Below the pieces are notes generated by a model. That model searched no databases and was not told where the DNA came from. It saw only the letters and a list, made by a program, of their open reading frames with translations. A stretch of 64,000 nucleotides of DNA from an uncultured Lachnospiraceae bacterium (GTDB lineage Bacteria > Bacillota > Clostridia > Lachnospirales > Lachnospiraceae), in NCBI GenBank assembly GCA_947174015.1, contig CAMWHJ010000005.1:5014-69013 (forward strand), read 5' to 3'. This document shows positions 9,850 to 57,654 of this stretch, piece after piece. The translations under genes and the position numbers were made by a program. Positions within the stretch are counted from its first letter, which is position 1, and each line of letters opens with the position of its first letter.

Positions 9850-10251
9850 ATGTTTAGTTCCAATGCATTTAATTACATTAATATATTGGACAAAGCGGCA
9901 GATGCCAGTGCGTTGAGAGGAAAAGCCATTAACAATAATCTTGCCAATGCAGATACTCCGAATTATAAGAGGCAGGATGTGGACTTTGAAAGTGTCCTGC
10001 AAAGAGAATTGGGGTCTTATCGGTCGAAGTACAAATCCAATGCATCAAGAGTGAAACGAGTGAATCAGAATCTGGAGAACCTTGAGGTGGGTACTTATAC
10101 AGATATGGTGAATTATTCTTATCGTCTTGATAGAAATAATGTGGATCCAGATATTGAAAATGTAGAGCTGGCGGCTAATGTCGAAAAATATAATGGTCTT
10201 ATTGACGGTATGACTTCGGAATTTGAACGCTTGAAAATGGTTATGAAATAA
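9850..10251 (+). CDS. flgB: flagellar basal-body rod protein FlgB
   Basis: NNLANADTPNYKRQDV rod-protein N-terminal signature. First gene of the cluster. Confidence 0.9.
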   Translation: MFSSNAFNYINILDKAADASALRGKAINNNLANADTPNYKRQDVDFESVLQRELGSYRSKYKSNASRVKRVNQNLENLEVGTYTDMVNYSYRLDRNNVDPDIENVELAANVEKYNGLIDGMTSEFERLKMVMK

Positions 10252-10271
10252 TTTAGGGGAGGAATGAGAAA

Positions 10272-10712
10272 ATGTCTATTTTTAATTCTTTTGATATATG
10301 TGCCTCTGGTATGTCGGCGCAAAGATTTCGATCCGATATCATCATGCAGAATATTGCCAATGTCACAACCACCAGAACAGAAGATGGGACACCTTACAGA
10401 AGACGTGTTGTAACTTTCGCAGAGAAGACCAATACGCCTTTTAGTCATGTGCTGGCACGTACCAGTGCGGATGTTGTTGGAGCAGGAGTGAAAGTTACCA
10501 GAGTATCGGAGGATTATGAGACAGAGATGGTAATGGCATACGATCCTTCCCATCCGGATGCGGATGAGAATGGGTATGTAACATATCCTAATGTGAATAT
10601 TATCACAGAAATGACGAATCTGATTGATGCAACAAGGTCCTATGAAGCAAATGCCACGGCTTTTGAAGCCAGCAAGTCCATTGTCACAAAGGGCTTAAGT
10701 TTAGGACAATAG
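10272..10712 (+). CDS. flgC: flagellar basal-body rod protein FlgC
   Basis: SGMSAQRFRSDIIMQNIANVTTTRT and C-terminal EMTNLIDATRSYEAN signatures. Confidence 0.9.
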   Translation: MSIFNSFDICASGMSAQRFRSDIIMQNIANVTTTRTEDGTPYRRRVVTFAEKTNTPFSHVLARTSADVVGAGVKVTRVSEDYETEMVMAYDPSHPDADENGYVTYPNVNIITEMTNLIDATRSYEANATAFEASKSIVTKGLSLGQ

Positions 10713-11084: not shown

Positions 11085-12677
11085 ATGGGTGAAAGAGTTA
11101 GAGGGGTCCAAAAACGAGTTGCGGACTTTTGGAATAAATATGATACAAGACAGAAGATGATAATGATAAGTGCAGTGGCAGCGGTGGTGATTACCATTGC
11201 CATTCTTGGTGCTGTATTCACAAGACCAAGTTATGTGGATATACATACCTGTGAAACGGTAAGCCAAACCACAGAGGTTACGGCACTTTTGGAAACGGAG
11301 GGAATCAAATACCAGATTAAACCGGATAATTTGACGATTCAAGTAGAAAAGAAAAATTCCCAACAGGCTGCACTGGTGCTGGGAGCAAATAATATTCCCA
11401 GTAAGGGAATGGGCATTGACGAAGCCTTGAGTGGTGGTTTTAGCACTACGGAAAGTGATAAAGACAAGAGATATAAGATATACAATGAAGAAGATATTGC
11501 AGATGTACTGGAAAGTATGGATGTGGTGAAAACAGCAAGCGTAAAAATGTATGTTCCTGAGGATGATGGAACGATTTTATCCAGAAAGCAGGATACTTCT
11601 GTCAGTGTTATGCTGACAACAAATGGCGAAGTGGACAGTGAGACGGCCGGAATTATGGCGAGATTTTTGCAGACGGCAGTGGGCAATAGTTCCACGGAGA
11701 AAATTACCATTATGGACAGCAAGGGAAAAACAATTTTCTCGGGTGCAGATGCCAGTTCTGCATCAGGAAATGCCAGTACGCAACTTTCTGTAAAAGCACA
11801 GGCAGAGGCTTTGATCAAGTCAGAAGTGCAGCAGGCGATTCTCAGCACCAGCATGTATGATGCAGTGCAGGTATCTCCGAATGTGGTTCTGAATTTCGAT
11901 GAATCCACTGAGACACAGCAGGAGTTTTGGGCACCAGAGGGCAGAACGGAAGGCATGATTACTCATCAGGATTCTTATGAATCAGAGACTAGCAATGGAA
12001 CCTCTGGTATTCCGGGTACGGATTCCAATGATGGTACTACATATGTGATTCAAGACAATGAGGGCAGTTCCTCTACGGTAACGGATACTTCCACAGATTA
12101 TTCTCCGAATCAGAGAGTGACTAATACATCTAAGACACCGGGGGCGATTCAGTATGATGAATCCACCATTTCAGTGGTGCTGACGAAACATGTTATTTAT
12201 AGAGAAGAAGATTTAGAAGAACAAGGTCTGTTGGAAGGCATCAGCTTTGAACAGTATCAGCAGGAGAACGGACAGCCTGCATCTACGGAAGTGAATGAAG
12301 AGTTTTATGAATTGGTGTCCAGAGCAACTGGGATTGCTCAGGGGAATATTTCCATTGTTGCCTATGATGTGCCTATGTTTGTGGAACGAGAGGTAGCCGA
12401 CAGAAGTGTGATGGATTACATCAATATATTGATTGTAATTCTGATTCTTGCACTGTTGGGATTTGTGGTATATAGAAGTACAAGACCAGTGGAAGTTACA
12501 GAACTGGAACCGGAATTATCTGTGGATCAGTTGTTGCAGGATACTAGAGAAAATCTGGAAGAAATTGACTTTGACGATAGAAGTGAGTCCAGAAAGATGA
12601 TTGAAAAATTTGTGGACGAAAAACCAGAAGCAGTTGCACAGCTGTTGCGTAACTGGCTGAATGAAGATTGGGAGTGA
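11085..12677 (+). CDS. fliF: flagellar MS-ring protein FliF
   Basis: 530 aa with N- and C-proximal TM segments flanking a large periplasmic-type region and an acidic C-terminus. Lies upstream of fliG. Confidence 0.9.
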   Translation: MGERVRGVQKRVADFWNKYDTRQKMIMISAVAAVVITIAILGAVFTRPSYVDIHTCETVSQTTEVTALLETEGIKYQIKPDNLTIQVEKKNSQQAALVLGANNIPSKGMGIDEALSGGFSTTESDKDKRYKIYNEEDIADVLESMDVVKTASVKMYVPEDDGTILSRKQDTSVSVMLTTNGEVDSETAGIMARFLQTAVGNSSTEKITIMDSKGKTIFSGADASSASGNASTQLSVKAQAEALIKSEVQQAILSTSMYDAVQVSPNVVLNFDESTETQQEFWAPEGRTEGMITHQDSYESETSNGTSGIPGTDSNDGTTYVIQDNEGSSSTVTDTSTDYSPNQRVTNTSKTPGAIQYDESTISVVLTKHVIYREEDLEEQGLLEGISFEQYQQENGQPASTEVNEEFYELVSRATGIAQGNISIVAYDVPMFVEREVADRSVMDYINILIVILILALLGFVVYRSTRPVEVTELEPELSVDQLLQDTRENLEEIDFDDRSESRKMIEKFVDEKPEAVAQLLRNWLNEDWE

Positions 12678-12683
12678 TAAAGC

Positions 12684-13694
12684 ATGGCAAAGGATACGGG
12701 AATCACTGGTCTGCAAAAAGCAGCAATACTTCTGATTGCTCTTGGACCGGAGAAGTCGGCAACAGTATTTAAACATTTAAAAGAGGATGAAATTGAATCT
12801 CTCACACTGGAGATTGCTAATACCAGAAGTATATCGCCCCAGATGAAGGAAGAAGTGCTGAATGAATTTTACGAAGTTTGTCTGGCACAACAATATATCG
12901 CAGAAGGCGGTATCAGCTATGCGAAGGATTTGTTGGAGAAAGCTCTTGGTTCCGAAAAAGCAGTGGATGTTATCAACAAATTGACAGCCTCTTTACAGGT
13001 GCGGCCTTTCGAGTTTGTGCGTAAAACGGATGCCAGTCAGCTGCTGAACTTTATTCAGGATGAGCATCCCCAGACCATTGCTCTGATATTGGCATACCTG
13101 CCCTCAGGGCAGGCTGCCAGTATTGTGGCATCTCTGCCACCGGAAAAACAGGCGGATGTGGCAAAACGTATTGCGGTTATGGATCGAACCTCACCGGATG
13201 TGATTAAGGAAGTGGAAAGAGTATTGGAAAGAAAGTTATCATCTTTGGTAAATCAGGATTACACGATTATTGGTGGTGTAGATGCTATTGTGGATATCTT
13301 GAATACGGTGGACAGAGGAACCGAGAAACATATTATGGAAACTTTGGAAATCGATGAACCAGAATTGGCAGATGAAATCAGACGAAAAATGTTTGTGTTC
13401 GAGGATATTATGTCTCTGGACGACAGAGCCATTCAGCGTGTGTTGCGTGATGTGGATAACAATGACTTGGCGACAGCACTTAAGGGTGCCAATGAGGAAG
13501 TGCAAGGAGTTATCTTCCGCAATATGTCCAAACGTTTGGCTGCCATGATTCAGGAAGACATGGAATATATGGGTCCGGTACGTTTGAAGGATGTTGAGGA
13601 AGCACAGCAGAAGATTGTTAATATTATCAGAAAACTTGAAGATTCCGCTGAAATTGTAATCTCCAGAGGTGGAGGTGACGAGATCATTGTCTAA
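12684..13694 (+). CDS. fliG: flagellar motor switch protein FliG
   Basis: EHPQTIALILAYL, MFVFEDI and a typical C-terminal torque-helix region. Confidence 0.95.
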   Translation: MAKDTGITGLQKAAILLIALGPEKSATVFKHLKEDEIESLTLEIANTRSISPQMKEEVLNEFYEVCLAQQYIAEGGISYAKDLLEKALGSEKAVDVINKLTASLQVRPFEFVRKTDASQLLNFIQDEHPQTIALILAYLPSGQAASIVASLPPEKQADVAKRIAVMDRTSPDVIKEVERVLERKLSSLVNQDYTIIGGVDAIVDILNTVDRGTEKHIMETLEIDEPELADEIRRKMFVFEDIMSLDDRAIQRVLRDVDNNDLATALKGANEEVQGVIFRNMSKRLAAMIQEDMEYMGPVRLKDVEEAQQKIVNIIRKLEDSAEIVISRGGGDEIIV

Positions 13695-51221: not shown

Positions 51222-51834
51222 TTAATTACAACCACAGTTACAATCGTTACGATTTGGTTTTGGCATCACATTTGCAGTGTTAGTTTCATTGCTATTGCAG
51301 TTGCAGTTAGAAGTTTTCTGGGGGCAGTCAAAAGCAGGGTTAAAGGCATAGAAGTTTTTCGCATCCAGATGCTCCTGTACAATCCGCAGGGCTTCACCGA
51401 AACGCTGGAAGTGTACAATTTCACGCTGACGCAGAAAACGAATGGGATCTGCTACATCATGGTCATGTACCAGACGCAGTATGTTGTCATAGGTGGAGCG
51501 GGCTTTCTGTTCCGCAGCCAAATCTTCCACCAGATCGGTGATGGGATCTCCCTTAGACTGAAATTCGCATGCATTAAAAGGAATACCGCCAGCAGCTTGG
51601 GGCCATAAGCCGGTGGTGTGGTCAACATAATATTTGTCAAAGCCGGAAGCTACAATTTCGTCGGGGGTGAGATTTCTGGTAAGCTGGAATACAATGGTGC
51701 CTACCATTTCGAGATGTGCTAATTCTTCCGTTCCGATATCCGTCAATGTTCCCATAACCTCCCGATAAGGCATTGCATACCGTTGGGACAGATAACGCAT
51801 GGAGGCAGCCAGCTCTCCATCAGGACCACCAAAT
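51222..51834 (-). CDS. cotJC: cotJC 3-prime segment (Mn-catalase-family spore coat protein, residues 29-231 of the reconstituted protein); not translatable on its own from the native start
   Basis: Reads FGGPDGELAASMRYLSQRYAMPYREVMGTLTDIGTEELAHLEMVG... (di-metal ligand motifs of the CotJC/Mn-catalase family). The frame is closed by TGA 36 nt upstream of the junction core. Confidence 0.9.
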
Positions 51835-51849
51835 AACGTTAAGATATAG
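51824..51849. repeat. Element/chromosome junction 1 (att half-sites): core GACCACCAAAT plus inner arm ACGTTAAGATATAG
   Basis: The core is identical to 57561-57571. The arm 51836-51849 is the exact reverse complement of 57541-57554. Confidence 0.85.
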
Positions 51850-51907
51850 CACTGTTTTTCCTTGCAAAATCAAGGTTTTCAGACAAACCAAGACTACAAT
51901 ACGACTT

Positions 51908-53344
51908 TTATGATTTGTAAAATATGATTTCAAGAGATTTGCTCTCACGCTGGTATTTGATTTCTTTTACAATCTGCCGGAGAGAGGAGGCCTTTTCTTC
52001 GGAATCAGCATCAGACCGGAGAAGTTGAGCCACAGTTTTGCAATCCTCCATCAGTTGCCTGCGCAGCAGTGGAGAATCCTCCGGCATTTTTGTTTCAAAT
52101 ATTTTCTGCTCTATTTCATGCCGTTCCTTTTGTATGGCTTCTTTATTTTCTTTATATTCTTCCAAAGTATCAATTTCTGCCAGATAAGCCTCTTTACAGC
52201 GTTTTTCCTTTTTATCCAAATATGCAAGCTGTTTCTTGAAGTTGGCAAGGTCAATCTTCATATTCGCCTTTGGCAGAATGTCAAAATGGATGGTATCATA
52301 GTCCACATTATCCAAAATTTCAAGCAGCATTTTCTCCATATTATTCTGTGAAATATAACAGGAGCCGGGATGCATTCCCTTAGTATATTTGTAACACTGG
52401 AATCCTCCCTGTTTATTTTCCGGGTGATAATAAGTCATGGTAGCACCGCATACACCGCATTTTAAAAGACCACAGATGTAATGCTTTGAATATCCTACCC
52501 CTTTACGTCTTGCAGGGGTATATGAGCTTTCTATGCGTTTCTGAACATCATTAAAATCCCCTTCGGATATAAGAGGTTCATGTTTTCCGTCAGCAATAAT
52601 GATGTCATCCGGGTCATGATTCTGGTGCGAAGAATGGGAGGCACGATTCCAGCGAACTTTGCCAATGTAAAAAGGATTTTGCAAAATATAGCGAACGGTT
52701 CTGAGTTCAAAAGGATATCCACGCTTGGTCTTATGCCCCTGTTCATTTAATTTTCTTGCAATACTGGAAAAATCAATGCCTTCTAAATAAGATGTGTAGA
52801 TATACTTTACAATGGCAGCCTCTTTCTCATTGACCATTGGAATTTTGCCGGGAACAGAATCGTATCCGAGAGGAGCAGCGGACTGGTAGCCTCCCCGCAA
52901 TGCTTTTTCTGTCATGCCCCGCCGTACTTCACTGGCCAGATTAATGGAGTAAAATTCATCAAACCATTCGATAATGCGTTCAATCAGTGAACCAAAAGGC
53001 CCCTCTATAATCGGTTCACTGATCGATATCACATTTACACCGTTTTTTTCAAGTAAGGATTTGTAGACAATGCTTTCTTCCTGGTTTCTGGCAAAACGTG
53101 AGAATTTCCATACAAGGATAGCATCAAATTCTCTGTTTCTGGCAGCAACGATCATTTTCTGAAATTCTGGCCGCTTATCTGCCTTTTTCCCCGAAATTCC
53201 GTTTTCCATATAGATATGATCCGCAAGGACCTCATATCCGTTTTTCTTGGCATATTCAATCAGAAGTCGTTTCTGGGCATCCGGGGAGAGCTCCTCCTGT
53301 TTGGAGGTGCTCACCCGGATATAGAGAGCAGCGGTATTCTGCAT
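51908..53344 (-). CDS. large serine recombinase (SpoIVCA/phage-integrase type)
   Basis: N-terminal resolvase catalytic domain (AALYIRVSTSKQ with the nucleophile Ser; VWKFSRFARN), a recombinase domain, a zinc ribbon (CGLLKCGVCGATMTY...FQCYKY) and a C-terminal coiled coil. 478 aa. Confidence 0.95.
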   Translation of the reverse strand: MQNTAALYIRVSTSKQEELSPDAQKRLLIEYAKKNGYEVLADHIYMENGISGKKADKRPEFQKMIVAARNREFDAILVWKFSRFARNQEESIVYKSLLEKNGVNVISISEPIIEGPFGSLIERIIEWFDEFYSINLASEVRRGMTEKALRGGYQSAAPLGYDSVPGKIPMVNEKEAAIVKYIYTSYLEGIDFSSIARKLNEQGHKTKRGYPFELRTVRYILQNPFYIGKVRWNRASHSSHQNHDPDDIIIADGKHEPLISEGDFNDVQKRIESSYTPARRKGVGYSKHYICGLLKCGVCGATMTYYHPENKQGGFQCYKYTKGMHPGSCYISQNNMEKMLLEILDNVDYDTIHFDILPKANMKIDLANFKKQLAYLDKKEKRCKEAYLAEIDTLEEYKENKEAIQKERHEIEQKIFETKMPEDSPLLRRQLMEDCKTVAQLLRSDADSEEKASSLRQIVKEIKYQRESKSLEIIFYKS

Positions 53345-53365
53345 ATTTATCTCATCCTTTCAAAG

Positions 53366-53379
53366 TTGCACCGGTGCAA
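53366..53379. promoter_or_regulatory. Perfect 14-bp palindrome TTGCACCGGTGCAA between the hicB stop and the recombinase RBS
   Basis: It abuts the hicB TAA stop and lies 21 nt upstream of the recombinase ATG. An identical copy sits at 54315-54328. Confidence 0.4.
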
Positions 53380-53775
53380 TTATCGCACGCCGATTTTCTG
53401 AATTAAAGCTTCTTGAAGTACCTGAGAAAAGTTTACACCATAGGCAGTAGCTTCCTCGTTGAGCCATTCCGGAATAGTAAGGGTTTTCTTAACCGCCTTA
53501 TTGTTATACATTTTTCGATATTTCATCGTATCTGCTTTTATATAGTTTACAAATTCGTTTTCCATAAGATGAATATCTGAGGGATTGCTTGGTTCTGGGA
53601 TTGTCTTGCCGTCTACTTCGTAACCATATAGCACAAGTGCAAGGACATCCTCTGCCATTTCAATTCCCTCTTCTAAAGTGTCAGCACATGTATAACAGCT
53701 TTCCAAATCCCTGAAAGTAATAGAGTAATTTCCCTCCGGCTCCTTTGTAAAAATGGCTGGATATACATACTTCAT
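53380..53775 (-). CDS. hicB: HicB-family antitoxin with a C-terminal ribbon-helix-helix-like DNA-binding tail
   Basis: MKYVYPAIFTKEPEGNYSITFRDLESCYTCADTLEEGIEMAEDVL (HicB/UPF0150 fold) and C-terminal TLTIPEWLNEEATAYGVNFSQVLQEAL. Confidence 0.85.
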   Translation of the reverse strand: MKYVYPAIFTKEPEGNYSITFRDLESCYTCADTLEEGIEMAEDVLALVLYGYEVDGKTIPEPSNPSDIHLMENEFVNYIKADTMKYRKMYNNKAVKKTLTIPEWLNEEATAYGVNFSQVLQEALIQKIGVR

Positions 53776-54005
53776 AAGATAACCTCCTTAAGATATATAA
53801 ATAGTATGAGGTATTGCATGGGTGATATCCCTGCATCCTCTCTAATGCGGTTGCAAGTTCCGGTTGGAACATCCTGAGATGGATGCCTTGGCACAGGAAA
53901 ACTCTTTCCAGTGTGGGGGCTGAATCAGATATCATGCCTCTTGCCATGCCTTTGCAGGTAACAGCCGTTTTTCTTTAGTAATTTGATAAGTTCAGATACT
54001 TTCAA
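53772..54005 (-). pseudogene. hicA: hicA toxin gene inactivated by an in-frame TGA at codon 27
   Basis: TTG start after AAGGAGGG. Reads LKVSELIKLLKKNGCYLQRHGKRHDI, then TGA (53927-53925), then FSPHTGKSFPVPRHPSQDVPTGTCNRIREDAGIS. HicA homologues have Trp (TGG) at the TGA position. The terminal TGA overlaps the hicB ATG. Confidence 0.75.
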
Positions 54006-54030
54006 TCCACGCCCTCCTTTCACTATAATT

Positions 54031-54059
54031 AATATAGCACGTATATACACGTGTGTCAA
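54031..54059 (-). promoter_or_regulatory. sigma-A promoter of the hicA(pseudo)-hicB(-recombinase) transcription unit
   Basis: TTGACA, 17-nt spacer, TATATT. The spacer CACGTGTATATACGTGC is itself near-palindromic and is a likely HicB operator. Confidence 0.6.
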
Positions 54060-54107
54060 TGACATGTATAGGTAGAGTGTAAGGTGACAATTTCTAATAT
54101 CCAATGC

Positions 54108-54305
54108 CATAAAAAGACAAAATATGAGTTTACAAAATAAAAATAATATGATATACTTGAGAAGTAGTCAGATGTATCTTAAATTCTCCCCTAAAGATAT
54201 TAGATGCATCAAAGATTACTCCCTCTTCATATTAGTAATTTTTGCAAACCGCAGCATAGATGATATGCTGCGGTTTTCTCTTTCGTAAAAGTAAAGTCTT
54301 GACAA
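54108..54305. repeat. Copy 1 of a roughly 200-bp direct repeat (about 95 percent identical to 55067-55266)
   Basis: Base-by-base comparison shows only a handful of substitutions and one 2-nt indel. Confidence 0.95.
54164..54283 (+). ncRNA. Candidate small RNA, copy 1 (about 120 nt), divergent from the hicA promoter
   Basis: TTTACA (54129), 17-nt spacer, TGATATACT extended -10 (ends 54157). Terminator is a 12-bp perfect stem AACCGCAGCATA/TATGCTGCGGTT (54247-54275) plus TTCTCTTT. C-rich motifs CTCCCCT and CTCCCTC. Confidence 0.4.
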
Positions 54306-54314
54306 GCATCAAAG

Positions 54315-54328
54315 TTGCACCGGTGCAA
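54315..54328. promoter_or_regulatory. Second copy of the palindrome TTGCACCGGTGCAA, abutting the stop of the second hicB
   Basis: Identical 14-mer with the same flanks (CAAAG...TATCG). Immediately follows the hicB TAG. Confidence 0.4.
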
Positions 54329-54736
54329 CTATCGTACACTGGTTTTTTTGGACATATCCAGAAGGGCATCCTGCAATATTTTTGAGAAATTTACATTGTT
54401 TTTTTCTCCAAAAGTATTAAGCCATGCAGGTAAAGTGATGTTTTTGCGTACTGTCTTTTCCCCATATTTTTCTGAATAAGTGTCCATGTCAAGGACCAGC
54501 AGATTAACAAAACTTCCAGTGGGAACTTCCAGTTCAGTGAACTCAGAAGCAGCAGGAATGGAGTTTCCTTCTTCCAATTCCAAAAGAATCCAACCGGATG
54601 CTGCATCCGTTCCCATCTCAATGGCATCAATTAGGTTATCGCCTTCACTAACGCAGCCGGGCAAGTCAGGAAAGGTGACTGTATAACCGTCTTTTTCGAT
54701 ACATGGCATAAAAATTGCCGGGTAAATGAGTTTCAT
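54329..54736 (-). CDS. hicB: HicB-family antitoxin (second, diverged copy)
   Basis: MKLIYPAIFMPCIEKDGYTVTFPDLPGCVSEGDNLIDAIEMGTDA... and C-terminal ITLPAWLNTFGEKNNVNFSKILQDAL. AGGAG lies 9 nt upstream of ATG 54736. Confidence 0.85.
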   Translation of the reverse strand: MKLIYPAIFMPCIEKDGYTVTFPDLPGCVSEGDNLIDAIEMGTDAASGWILLELEEGNSIPAASEFTELEVPTGSFVNLLVLDMDTYSEKYGEKTVRKNITLPAWLNTFGEKNNVNFSKILQDALLDMSKKTSVR

Positions 54737-54765
54737 ATTCATACACTCCTTTTTCGGAAGCAAGA

Positions 54766-54948
54766 CTATTTTAGTCCTGCTTGTTTTAATATTGAATTAG
54801 CGGTACCTTTATCGACATCTCCGGCATGAAAAGGTATTGTCACCTTTCCGGGTTTGGAATCATGCTTGTAATGTCTATGGGAGCCGACTTGTCGTATCAG
54901 GTGCCAGCCATCCTCTAATAATATCTTTTCAAGTTCCCTAGCTCTCAT
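54766..54948 (-). CDS. hicA: HicA-family mRNA interferase toxin (intact)
   Basis: 60 aa, MRARELEKILLEDGWHLIRQVGSHRHYKHDSKPGKVTIPFHAGDVDKGTANSILKQAGLK. AAGGAGG RBS. Confidence 0.9.
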   Translation of the reverse strand: MRARELEKILLEDGWHLIRQVGSHRHYKHDSKPGKVTIPFHAGDVDKGTANSILKQAGLK

Positions 54949-54974
54949 CTTTAATGTGCCTCCTTATAGTTATA

Positions 54975-55002
54975 ATTATACACATTATACACACAAAGTC
55001 AA
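54975..55002 (-). promoter_or_regulatory. sigma-A promoter of hicA-hicB module 2, with palindromic operator candidates
   Basis: TTGACT, 16-nt spacer, TATAAT. A 17-bp palindrome ATGTGTATTATACACAT lies just upstream. Confidence 0.5.
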
Positions 55003-55066
55003 TAGAAGATGTGTATAATACACATAAATAGTATGAGGTATTGCAGGGTTTATATCCCTGCGATGT

Positions 55067-55266
55067 CATAAAAAGACAAAATATGAGTTTACAAAATGAA
55101 AATAATGTGATATAGTAGAAAAGTAGTCAGATGTATCTTAAATTCTCCCCTAAAGATAGTAGGTGCATCAAAGATTACTCCCTATCTTCATATTAGTAAT
55201 TTTTGCAAACCGCAGCATAGATGATATGTTGCGGTTTTCTCTTTCGTAAAAGTAAAGTCTTGACAA
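55067..55266. repeat. Copy 2 of the roughly 200-bp direct repeat
   Basis: See 54108-54305. Confidence 0.95.
55123..55244 (+). ncRNA. Candidate small RNA, copy 2
   Basis: TTTACA (55088), 17-nt spacer, TGATATAGT. The terminator stem 55208-55236 carries one C-to-T change that converts a G-C pair to G-U, so the stem is preserved. Confidence 0.4.
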
Positions 55267-55369
55267 AATTCTGGTCAAGAATAACTTTTTTTAAGTGAAA
55301 AAATGTCAAGAATAACAGATAAAAGAAAAGCCCATGTAAAATGCAGGGGCTTTAGAAAATGGCTGGAAA

Positions 55370-56188
55370 TTAGCTTACTCTTAGACTAAGTGTTTCATAA
55401 TACTCTCGTGCTCCGGGGATTTTGGTAAATACAGCAGTATTATTAAACTGTTTCTTCACTACATCCTCAATCTCATCAATGCTAACATGAAAGAACTCCT
55501 TTCGAAGATTAACCAGATTGACACGCTGATTTTGGAAATGTTTATGCAATGCATGTTCTAGTGCCGGAGCATCATCTGAGAATATCATGGCATGAACATC
55601 AAACTCAAATGGAACAGAAGCACTGCTGAGTTCTTTTACACGATCCATAGGTTCCAAGCGGCGTGTCATACCAATTTTATAAATGTCCTCTCCAAAAGAA
55701 CCAATATTCGAGATAATATAGACATAACCTGCTTTTGCATTCGCTTCTCGTTCGAGAACGGTATTTTTTTCAGATTCCAGTTGTCTCAAGCGTTCCTCTA
55801 GTTCTCTGATTTTATCAATATATAATTGTTTTTCAGCAGAATCATTAGAGTTTTGCATATATTGCATCAGACGTTTCATTTCATTGTTGTGCTGAGCTTG
55901 GTCTTTTTCAATTTTGGCTTTTTGACGTTCGATTTCTTTTCTGACTTTTTCTTCTTCTGCCATTTGCTCACGGATAGAGCGTTGTATCTCTGCCTCCTGT
56001 TCTTTTTTCAACTCAAAGGTATAAACAAGATTCCACTTATCTAATTTCAGTTTTAAAATTTCAAGGTTTAGTTGGACACCGTCTACCACAAATATCTTAC
56101 TTAAGAGTTTCAAAAGATTTTGAAATCTTTTCACGAAAGGAGAGATATAACATGGTAAGTACTGCAGTAGAAAACAAAAATTACACAC
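55370..56188 (-). pseudogene. N-terminally truncated DUF4041 / T5orf172 (GIY-YIG-like) domain protein
   Basis: C-terminal GYVYIISNIGSFGEDIYKIGMTRRLEPMDRVKELSSASVPFEFDVHAMIFSDDAPALEHALHKHF...KEFF is a T5orf172 domain, preceded by the coiled-coil part of DUF4041. Homology is lost upstream of about 56130, and the first 20 or so codons of the ORF look like junk. Confidence 0.65.
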
Positions 56189-56319
56189 CAGAAGAATTAG
56201 CAGGTCTTTGCAGATTCTTAGAAGTTTATAGAAAGCCTTGGAAAATAGAAAGGAGAGTGAAAAACTGGATTGGCGATATCACACTAAGGGTCAAGGTAGA
56301 TAAAGAAAGCATGAATTAG
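56152..56319 (+). CDS. 55-aa hypothetical ORF at the truncation point of the DUF4041 gene
   Basis: AAAGGAGAG RBS 7 nt upstream of the ATG. No recognisable domain. May be a gene fragment. Confidence 0.25.
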   Translation: MVSTAVENKNYTPEELAGLCRFLEVYRKPWKIERRVKNWIGDITLRVKVDKESMN

Positions 56320-56486
56320 AGAAACAGCATGAAATGCTAGGGAGAACAATTACAGAACTAAAGAAAATGGTAGAAGTAGAAAAAAGAACCCACCAGAGGG
56401 CAGGTTTCTAAAAACGGACAGGTGTGAATAACCGCATAGCGTACAAACCATAGAACATAAATTAAAAAAAGAAAGGAGGGGTAGTT

Positions 56487-56666
56487 ATGGCAGCAAAACC
56501 ATTACCACTTTCAAATGGATTCTCTGCAATTATTCACGTAGAGCAGACGGATGGAACTGTAAAAGACATTCAATCATGGGAAGAACTATCAGAGGAGTTT
56601 AAGGTACTGAACCCACAGGCATTGCGTGCAGTAGGACTTGTGCCGCATAAAGACAATGCCGGATGA
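56487..56666 (+). CDS. 59-aa hypothetical protein (below the ORF-track cutoff)
   Basis: Strong RBS AAAGGAGGGG 6 nt upstream of the ATG. Reads MAAKPLPLSNGFSAIIHVEQTDGTVKDIQSWEELSEEFKVLNPQALRAVGLVPHKDNAG. Confidence 0.4.
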   Translation: MAAKPLPLSNGFSAIIHVEQTDGTVKDIQSWEELSEEFKVLNPQALRAVGLVPHKDNAG

Positions 56667-56719
56667 TGAGAACAAAAAATAGAATGCGTTTATTGAACTG
56701 ATGGACTGAAAATTGAATA

Positions 56720-56838
56720 TTGGCTGTGCACCAGAAGCCGCACTGGGATCCTCATTGATACGATATATTTCAAATACTCCACCTCAATAATAATAGATTT
56801 GCTGCAACCTTCCGGTGCGGTGTCTAGTGCACAGCCAA
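56720..56838. repeat. Imperfect 29-bp inverted repeats flanking a 61-bp spacer
   Basis: TTGGCTGTGCACCAGAAGCCGCACTGGGA (56720-56748) versus the reverse complement of 56810-56838. The outer 12 bp are perfect, with 24 of 29 matching overall. Confidence 0.7.
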
Positions 56839-57069
56839 AGCAAAAAAGAAGAAACAAACAACAAATGGCAAGATTAACTTATAAAAACAAAAATGGAACA
56901 TGGGGACTTAACAACGGTTACGATATGCACAAAGTTCCGAAAGAGTTGTATGGAGTTCTGTGGAAATTAAAGGATTATTATAAAAGAGTGGCAGCAGGTC
57001 CTGAAAAAACGCCTCATCAAAGAAGACAGGGAACTATCAAGAATCAGTGCCGTAAAACGAACAGAAAAC

Positions 57070-57203
57070 ATAAAAGAACTGCAGGAAAACCCATAGAGCA
57101 GGTTCAGGCAATGCTAGGGCATGAGAGCATAGACACAACCCTAATCTATGCAAGAACCAACGATTCTACTGTAAAAGAAAGCCACAAACGATATTTAACA
57201 TAA
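57070..57203 (+). pseudogene. C-terminal fragment of a tyrosine recombinase/integrase
   Basis: AGKPIEQVQAMLGHESIDTTLIYARTNDSTVKESHKRY carries the LGH...TT..Y catalytic-Tyr motif. The upstream part of the same ORF (MARLTYKNKNGTWGLNNGYD...WKLKDYY) is an unrelated phage-type fragment. Confidence 0.6.
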
Positions 57204-57540
57204 GGAGGCAACAGGTGGAATTGCGTATCGACAGCAGGTAAGCTGGTTATACAACAGTTGAGGTAAAACAACATTCCAGTGTTTTACATGCACCCACAAA
57301 GCTTTTGCAGGAAAGTATATTGGAAAAGAAATTTTCCTATGAAGGATCAAAACTTTATGAAATCAATTTCCAAAACGCAAGGTGTGTGGAGGATAACAAT
57401 TTGAACAAATATGTGAATAAGAAAATGGAAAATTCGGAGCCAAGACTAAGCAGGCTTGTCGGACAGTTTCAGAAAAAAGTAGTGCGAAAACCAGAGGAGC
57501 CCAGATTGTGCAGGCAAATAATTTTTACAAAATATAAATA

Positions 57541-57571
57541 CTATATCTTAACGTAATTCAGACCACCAAAT
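57541..57571. repeat. Element/chromosome junction 2 (att half-sites): inner arm CTATATCTTAACGT, 6-nt spacer, core GACCACCAAAT
   Basis: See junction 1. Arm and core are exact matches. Confidence 0.85.
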
Positions 57572-57654
57572 TGAGATATAATAACCTGTGCCAGCTTAGG
57601 ATTGGAAGTTTTAATATTTACCGGATACTGCAATTTTTTTTCATAACTCCACAT
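57561..57654 (-). CDS. cotJC: cotJC 5-prime segment (codons 1-31 of the reconstituted gene)
   Basis: The ATG directly follows the cotJB TAA. MWSYEKKLQYPVNIKTSNPKLAQVIISQFGG is a typical CotJC N-terminus. In the integrated state it runs into the element and stops after LNYVKI. Confidence 0.9.

Follow-up and report, generated by a model that had tools for sequence, protein, structure and literature searches.

Organization of the locus

The stretch of DNA analyzed here ('the window', 64,000 nucleotides from an uncultured Lachnospiraceae bacterium; contig CAMWHJ010000005.1, positions 5,014 to 69,013) contains an element that splits the spore-coat gene cotJC, and this element carries two direct repeats, termed R1 and R2 (collectively 'R'). 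R1 sits in a gene-poor stretch between two minus-strand hicAB toxin-antitoxin cassettes, and one repeat lies upstream of each hicA promoter. The copies are approximately 95% identical overall (93-99% in two blocks), with a single 2-nt indel, and each displays on its plus strand the outline of a small RNA gene: a promoter-like site, a predicted structured transcript with exposed C-rich motifs, and an intrinsic terminator (Table 1).

Table 1. Positions of the repeats, their predicted parts and the neighboring features, numbered within the window.
Feature	Position	Strand	Remarks
Repeat unit R1 (202 bp)	54104-54305	+	direct-repeat families D1 and D2; alignment with R2
Repeat unit R2 (204 bp)	55063-55266	+	direct-repeat families D1 and D2; alignment with R1
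R1 promoter-like site	54129-54157	+	TTTACA-17 nt-TGATATACT; extended -10; A-rich tract upstream; 10/12 with TG
R2 promoter-like site	55088-55116	+	TTTACA-17 nt-TGATATAGT; extended -10; 10/12 with TG
Predicted R1 RNA, ~120 nt	54164-54283	+	+1 inferred from the -10 box; RNAfold -37.8 kcal/mol
Predicted R2 RNA, ~122 nt	55123-55244	+	RNAfold -34.8 kcal/mol
R1 5' stem-loop domain, 56 nt	54164-54219	+	stacked helices of 6 + 9 bp, weak 3-bp inner helix (predicted)
CUCCCCU, apical loop	R1 54186-54192; R2 55145-55151	+	
R1 linker	54219-54245	+	opens with CUCCCUC (54219-54225); from unpaired probability
CUCCCU, R2 linker	55178-55183	+	
R1 intrinsic terminator	54246-54283	+	13-bp stem, 5-nt loop, U-rich tail TCTCTTTCGT
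R2 intrinsic terminator	55207-55244	+	13-bp stem, 5-nt loop, tail TCTCTTTCGT
hicA1 promoter	54031-54059	-	TTGACA-17 nt-TGCTATATT; back-to-back with R1 promoter
hicA2 promoter	54975-55002	-	TTGACT-16 nt-TATAAT; back-to-back with R2 promoter
hicA1, pseudogene	53772-54005	-	in-frame TGA at codon 27 (53925-53927), by translation
hicB1, 131 aa	53380-53775	-	Pfam PF15919
hicA2, 60 aa, intact	54766-54948	-	Pfam PF07927, E = 2.6e-22
hicB2, 135 aa from ATG	54329-54736	-	Pfam PF15919
Large serine recombinase gene, 478 aa	51908-53344	-	
cotJC-intervening element, 5,737 bp	51824-57570		bounded by TTTGGTGGTC cores at 51824-51833 and 57561-57570
cotJC halves	57541-57654 (first 31 codons) and 51222-51800		

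Promoters, predicted transcript and terminator

An earlier note on this DNA, made from the sequence alone, had described TTTACA, a 17-nt spacer and an extended -10 in both repeats, directed away from each hicA promoter. Both statements are borne out: each R site matches the consensus at 10 of 12 positions in addition to the TG, and back-to-back promoter matches place the -35 boxes of the R and hicA promoters 70 and 86 bp apart. When sites were scored by consensus matches only (a -35 at 5/6, a 17-nt spacer, TGn, and a -10 at 5/6), seven of this grade were found on both strands of the window (128 kb), compared to approximately one expected when the sequence is shuffled locally; the R1, R2 and hicA1 promoters account for three of them. 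A third promoter-like copy at 57524-57544 is without a -10 box, overlaps an att arm and is probably a chance occurrence.

In each repeat, the promoter match is followed on the same strand by an intrinsic terminator, within the 50-300 nt range (both being recognized as consensus matches) that is generic to small RNA genes. The stem, 5-nt loop and T-rich tail of this terminator are present as the earlier note had claimed, except that its stem comprises 13 rather than 12 pairs when the A/U ends are included. The U-tract follows the stem on the plus strand only; on the minus strand the stem is followed by UUUGCAAAAA, a poor tail. The two C-rich motifs (CUCCCCU and CUCCCUC) also lie precisely where that note had located them. 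Both are predicted to be unpaired with a probability of approximately 0.9-1.0, and across the linker (26-28 nt in length) the unpaired probability is approximately 0.7-1.0 over the C-rich half and 0.3-0.7 toward the terminator.

Predicted folding is strand specific. Relative to shuffled sequences, the whole RNA gives z-scores of -7.0 and -5.4 (R1 and R2, respectively) on the plus strand and -3.5 and -3.0 on the minus strand, while the 5' domain alone gives -5.2 and -4.3 on the plus strand and only -0.6 and -0.8 on the minus strand, where the fold is weak because the helices of that domain use G-U pairs. The first base of the 5' hairpin, a structure absent from the earlier note, coincides with the predicted +1 (54164). 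The 5' domain ranks in the top ~1.1% of AT-rich (low-GC) 56-nt stretches of the window, and many of the other top-ranked stretches are terminator-like gene ends.

Differences between the two copies

R1 and R2 differ at nine places. Three of these fall within the promoter (two in the spacer and one at the fifth base of the -10 box), and two more in the 'discriminator' that separates the -10 box from +1. Within the RNA, an internal loop holds one difference (54203), the linker holds the 2-nt indel, and stems hold the remaining two. The stem difference in the terminator, a C (54259) in R1 and a T (55220) in R2 that converts a G-C pair to G-U, is indeed the only one in that stem, as had been noted earlier; the second, which had not, lies in the 5' hairpin, where an A to G change at 54207 converts U-A to U-G. 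Both changes preserve pairing on the plus strand, while the minus strand counterparts would be A-C mismatches. The earlier argument from preserved pairing is weakened by its reliance on single substitutions, one of which is polymorphic between strains. Judged from the sequences, the overall pattern is that expected of a working promoter and RNA; by a rough estimate, about 1 in 10 random placements would look equally benign. These arguments rest on four near-identical sequences (R1 and R2 in two strains) and on two G-U-compatible changes.

The repeats have also been better kept than the flanks that were duplicated with them (10 differences in 204 nt for R, versus 11 in 84 nt for the blocks D3 + D5 described below; 95% versus 87% identity), which is mild evidence for either constraint or later gene conversion. 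In strain L001, each copy has the base of the other at one site: R1 has that of R2 at 54203 (the internal loop), and R2 has that of R1 in the terminator stem. Such sharing of alleles between copies and strains indicates that R1 and R2 exchange alleles, and that these polymorphisms are young.

The L001 sequence ends with a garbled duplication inside hicA1, and three short-read Logan contigs of the same element (L125, L129 and L130) end exactly 30 nt into the R2 tail, as expected of a repeat that breaks assembly graphs. The sequence just 3' of R2 (55257-55317) contains GTCAAGAATAAC twice in direct orientation (55275-55286 and 55306-55317), along with TCTTGAC in inverted orientation (55257-55263); these motifs, which look like an operator, are absent after R1.

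Coding potential

The plus strand of R1 contains an open reading frame (ORF) of 38 codons (54172-54288) that encodes a short hydrophobic stretch and is without a ribosome-binding site; its counterpart in R2 is shortened to 21 codons by the 2-nt indel. This agrees with the earlier note in all respects but the position of the ATG, which is 54172-54174 rather than 54170. The two copies thus have no ORF in common, as is generic to small RNA genes. All stop-free stretches of at least 18 residues in six frames of both copies, when concatenated and compared to 5.8 billion proteins, returned nothing at E <= 10. The lack of a shared ORF, together with the lack of a protein match, indicates that R is neither a recognizable gene nor a recognizable gene fragment in coding terms. 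On the minus strand, a mini-ORF of 13 codons (MHL(I/L)SLGENLRYI) is found at 54171-54212 and 55130-55173, with GGGAG 9 nt 5' of its ATG.

Search for relatives of the repeats

A series of searches failed to identify R outside of its own element. A cmscan of positions 53300-55500 against 4227 Rfam families (E <= 10) gave no meaningful match on R. Blastn of R returned a single chance match of 40 nt in phage records and no match in plasmid records; exact 22-28-mers and a gapped pattern of the two C-rich motifs gave no match in IMG/VR; and an R 22-mer gave none in the JGI metagenomes, where the gapped pattern produced five matches, all of which (5/5) were rejected by the covariance model. A 19-mer of R was found twice among 185,579 GTDB genomes, in both cases as a chance match in Bacteroidota. 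ENA and Logan assemblies were covered through proteins or exact words. Finally, a covariance model of the two R RNAs was run over relatives of hicAB1, hicAB2, the T5orf172 gene and the recombinase gene (approximately 115 loci), and matched only R1 and R2. As judged by these sequence comparisons, R is an 'orphan' that is found in one species only.

For the neighboring proteins, numerous relatives of 70-81% identity are found in phage-like surroundings. A siphovirus-like prophage (L104) displays the order type-2 hicAB, opposite-strand cargo, type-1 hicAB and large serine recombinase, which is the same skeleton as that of the R-bearing element.

Several other identities for R were considered and rejected. 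It is not a decayed copy of a small ORF found at another locus (L017): a 29-nt match of the tail is real, but the full alignment is reached by 14/300 and 106/300 shuffled sequences. Nor is it a miniature inverted-repeat transposable element (there are no terminal inverted repeats or target duplications) or an att site of the recombinase (the genuine att sites are those of the cotJC junctions, which have no relation to R), and no tRNA or transfer-messenger RNA was found.

Predicted targets

Scans with the full-length RNA produced long duplexes that could not be interpreted, and were replaced by scans with the two unpaired segments (loop and linker), in which the start region of each of 61 window genes was taken as positions -30 to +15. 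This set covers approximately 2% of a genome, and most of the genes in it are flagellar. The targets suggested in the earlier note proved to be unremarkable among the 61 regions: hicA1 ranks 5-12, hicA2 7-33, hicB1 9-34, hicB2 40-49, the recombinase 43-47 and the 59-aa ORF 19-31. The duplexes formed with hicA start regions are ordinary as well (-14 to -16 kcal/mol, with ranks of 5-12 among the 61 for the linker).

The top match to the linker is instead the start region of fliG (12655-12690), at -24.9 kcal/mol for R2 and -21.7 kcal/mol for R1, with the R2 linker pairing at 14 of 15 nt across the GGGAG ribosome-binding site of that gene. The top match to the loop is the start region of flgC (10245-10275; -21.3 kcal/mol), in which CUCCCCUAAA pairs with UUUAGGGGAG. 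When the C-rich core was kept and its flanks were shuffled, an equal or better best-of-61 match was obtained in 0.3% (R2 linker), 5% (R1 linker) and 15% (loop) of cases. The predicted pairing with fliG and flgC is accordingly a lead and not a result.

The hicAB cassettes and the history of their duplication

Both cassettes have the makeup of HicAB type II toxin-antitoxin systems, with HicA_toxin (PF07927) and HicB_lk_antitox (PF15919) domains encoded in a hicA-hicB operon. In hicA1, the in-frame TGA replaces the usual HicA tryptophan and the normal stop codon has been lost, while the cognate hicB1 is intact; from its sequence, the toxin gene looks dead and the antitoxin orphaned. HicB1 and HicB2 are only 37% identical, and the centers of the two cassettes appear unrelated when compared. 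The corresponding tandem units (53360-54308 and 54309-55266; 949 and 958 bp) are alike at their ends only, through R (95%) and through a 38-bp block termed D5 (87%). The latter contains GTTGCACCGGTGCAAC, a perfect 16-nt palindrome that is found at each hicB stop codon (53365-53380 and 54314-54329) and might serve as a binding site for a protein, as a weak terminator or as a hotspot of recombination.

Abutting R2, on the side that faces the hicA2 promoter, lies D3' (55016-55061), a stretch of 46 nt left over from the 3' end of a type-1 hicA gene and its downstream spacer. It contains a hairpin (GCAGGG...CCCTGC) and matches positions 53789-53834 of the window and 2937-2970 of the L104 prophage. 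Its location implies that R2 was formerly upstream of a type-1 hicAB cassette, as R1 still is. Taken together, these sequence relationships point to recombinational reshuffling and gene conversion, rather than to a simple recent tandem duplication.

The element that splits cotJC

In addition to the recombinase and the two hicAB cassettes, the cargo of the element consists of a T5orf172 protein, two small ORFs and a short tyrosine-integrase remnant. The last of these is a 134-aa ORF (56799-57203, plus strand) in which only a C-terminal stretch of 32 residues (PF00589, residues 91-122) is recognizable, and it is regarded as a remnant gene. Each TTTGGTGGTC core is flanked on the element side by a 14-nt inverted repeat, CTATATCTTAACGT, and in silico joining at the core yields an intact CotJC of 230 aa. 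At another locus (L121, 8277-8486), which encodes an identical CotJB and is taken, from its sequence, to come from a different strain, either of this species or of a close relative, the site used by the element is uninterrupted, and a P2-like prophage has instead entered cotJC 35 codons further into the gene. The presence of two different elements at two positions suggests that cotJC is a recurrent target of intervening elements, a role for which no report was found in a search of the literature.

Sporulation genes split by intervening elements include sigK (by skin), spsM (by SPbeta) and gerE (by gin) (PMC5595907, PMC4191935). The element described here shares with these a split sporulation gene, an end that carries a large serine recombinase, attL and attR sites in which inverted repeats flank a short direct core, and restoration of the reading frame when the cores are joined; an empty site is provided by L121. 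On these sequence features it is a skin- or gin-like sporulation gene-intervening element, which differs from the known examples in its target (cotJC) and its small size (only 5.7 kb). No recombination directionality factor was recognized in it. In another organism (L111, 494-2290), a relative of hicAB1 (71% nucleotide identity), with no recombinase, directly follows an intact cotJABC operon; this arrangement may reflect the remnant of a similar element that became fixed, or else a common preference for this neighborhood.

A candidate small RNA gene

The features of R described above make it somewhat probable that the repeats are independently transcribed, non-coding RNA genes that each produce a discrete transcript from the plus strand. 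A promoter for the housekeeping sigma factor, with an extended -10, would fire divergently from the adjacent hicA promoter, and transcription would start at approximately 54164 (R1) or 55123 (R2). The first 56 nt would fold at once into a stem-loop that protects the 5' end and presents CUCCCCU in its apical loop, followed by a linker of 26-28 nt that begins with CUCCCU(C) and is unpaired over its C-rich half, and the RNA would end at a strong intrinsic terminator. Such an RNA would then act in trans, with its C-rich unpaired segments pairing to G-rich Shine-Dalgarno regions and blocking the loading of ribosomes. That R is a trans-acting 'anti-Shine-Dalgarno' RNA of this type is a more tentative proposition, and one to which we would assign somewhat less than an even chance. 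The two copies would have arisen through recombination inside a decayed prophage-like element, with gene conversion keeping them alike. Transcription, the exact ends of the RNA, its action in trans and its targets are all features that we infer from sequence. Of the riboregulator proposed in the earlier note, the anatomy of the unit, the strand-specific fold, the unpaired C-rich motifs and the divergence from hicA are upheld, whereas the proposed targets are not. Two more specific possibilities (that the R RNAs silence the flagellar genes fliG and flgC, or that they constitute a third, RNA component of HicAB that either covers the ribosome-binding site of hicA or serves the HicA RNase as a decoy) are highly improbable.

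One small RNA with which R can be compared, RsaE/RoxS, is associated with redox- and nitric oxide-responsive control. It is a C-rich RNA of the Bacillales that pairs with G-rich ribosome-binding sites (Rfam RF01820; PMC8216469, PMC6158497). R resembles it in length (~100-120 nt), in having several UCCC or CCCC motifs in hairpin loops or unpaired stretches (at least two unpaired UCCC motifs being a trait of RsaE/RoxS that R displays in its apical loop and linker), in its intrinsic terminator and, by analogy, in the expected mode of pairing with G-rich ribosome-binding sites. It differs in its architecture (one long 5' stem-loop, a linker and a terminator) and in its location on a mobile element in one species, whereas RsaE/RoxS is a conserved chromosomal gene across the Bacillales. 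The earlier note had mentioned RNAs of the RsaE/RoxS type in connection with the C-rich motifs; R is not a member of that family, as there is no match to RF01820 even at E <= 10.

SprX (RsaOR) of Staphylococcus is prophage-borne, can be present in two copies, and has a C-rich loop proposed to mask the ribosome-binding sites of host genes. R is analogous in each of these respects (a prophage-derived element, two copies, and a C-rich loop proposed as a ribosome-binding site mask), but shows no similarity to SprX in sequence or model and belongs to a different host lineage (judged from the relatives of HicB, a clostridial gut bacterium that is Lachnospiraceae-like). Like the RNA antitoxins of prophage type I systems, R has a promoter and terminator of its own and lies beside a toxin gene on a mobile element. 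Unlike these antitoxins, it overlaps no gene and runs antisense neither to hicA nor to another toxin ORF (neither an antisense overlap nor extended complementarity with a toxin mRNA, the hallmark of such antitoxins, is found), the neighboring toxin has a protein antitoxin (HicB), and there is no conserved small hydrophobic toxin ORF.

Several observations weigh against the interpretation of R as a small RNA gene. The absence of a homologue in the collections searched deprives the structure of support from covariation and limits any evidence of selection to two near-identical copies. Neither of the hicAB cassettes, nor the T5orf172 gene, is accompanied by R in its closest relatives, and the slot corresponding to R1 in the L104 prophage holds protein genes on the opposite strand (a dCTP-deaminase gene and a 149-aa gene). 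Only two changes preserve pairing through wobble, and one of them, plus a loop difference, is polymorphic between strains. A C-rich motif on the plus strand is a Shine-Dalgarno-like sequence on the minus strand, which is the coding strand for most genes of the element, and the two substitutions of the 5' domain (at 54203 and 54207) amount to synonymous (CAT/CAC) or conservative (ATA/CTA, Ile/Leu) codon changes within the minus-strand mini-ORF. Lastly, no specific target was found among the element's own genes in the scan of 61 start regions.

Alternative explanations

Some of these same observations would be expected if R were a non-functional relic, composed of promoter, terminator and ribosome-binding site fragments of decayed prophage cargo that recombination copied during the reshuffling of hicAB, too recently for divergence to set in; the C-rich motifs would then be only the reverse complement of old minus-strand Shine-Dalgarno sequences. 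The element is visibly decayed (the nonsense codon in hicA1, the 32-residue integrase remnant, the 46-nt hicA remnant at R2), R is absent from all relatives with its place in L104 taken by opposite-strand protein genes, a GGGAG, 9-nt spacer, ATG and 13 codons are found on its minus strand, and its tail matches 29 nt at the 3' end of the L017 small ORF. A top-tier promoter, a plus strand-specific hairpin at +1 and a strong terminator within 155 nt are, however, unlikely leftovers, no protein was matched by a frame of R, the alignment of R with the L017 ORF over its full length is no better than that of shuffled sequences, and R has been better kept than its duplicated flanks. On balance, we regard this explanation, although the main rival to a small RNA gene, as unlikely. 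That R encodes a small protein, either the 38-aa plus-strand ORF (54172-54288) or the 13-aa minus-strand ORF (54212-54171), is barely credible: the hydrophobic stretch of the former, and the well-spaced GGGAG and the synonymous or Ile/Leu differences of the latter, are countered by the missing ribosome-binding site and truncation to 21 codons in R2 of the one, by the weak minus-strand promoter-like sites near the other (9/12, no TG extension), and by the absence of a match to any frame among 5.8 billion proteins (a query for which the 13-aa ORF was too short).

Two further explanations assign R a role at the level of DNA or transcription. As a cis-acting transcription element, it might insulate the hicA promoter, produce antisense RNA by read-through against the convergent hicB2-hicA2 genes (from R1) and T5orf172 gene (from R2), or help to end minus-strand transcripts. 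The back-to-back arrangement of the R and hicA promoters, the direction of R1 into the 3' end of hicB2 and of R2 into that of T5orf172, and the position of the R1 hairpin approximately 50 nt downstream of the hicB2 stop codon on the minus strand would all fit such a role. Read-through past the strong plus-strand terminator is nevertheless expected to be low, the minus-strand tail (UUUGCAAAAA) makes a poor terminator, T5orf172 has a terminator hairpin of its own (~55322-55347), and the structured 5' domain and exposed C-rich motifs are left unexplained, so that we consider a cis-acting role quite unlikely. It is very unlikely, in turn, that R and the adjacent 38-bp D5 block serve chiefly as homology for the duplication or exchange of hicAB cassettes, with the RNA-like features being incidental. 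The tandem units (949 and 958 bp) with conserved ends and unrelated centers, the polymorphic sites common to copies and strains (suggesting gene conversion) and the assemblies that break inside R are all in keeping with that idea, but it accounts for the copy number and not for the combination of promoter, hairpin and terminator, it would allow R to be a gene as well, and no other R-bearing cassette array was found among the relatives scanned.

Implications

At present, R is one more prediction of a small RNA without relatives, although of a known kind, and the context of the element (the interruption of cotJC at two positions by two elements) may be the more useful observation. If expressed, R would be a lineage-restricted small RNA, present in two copies on a mobile element that splits a spore-coat gene, and would add to the few prophage-derived, C-rich riboregulators found outside of Staphylococcus and Bacillus. 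A role in the silencing of flagellar genes or within HicAB, if true, would link an element that splits a sporulation gene to the control of motility or of a toxin, and expression of R would in any case offer a 'handle' on communication between such an element and its host.

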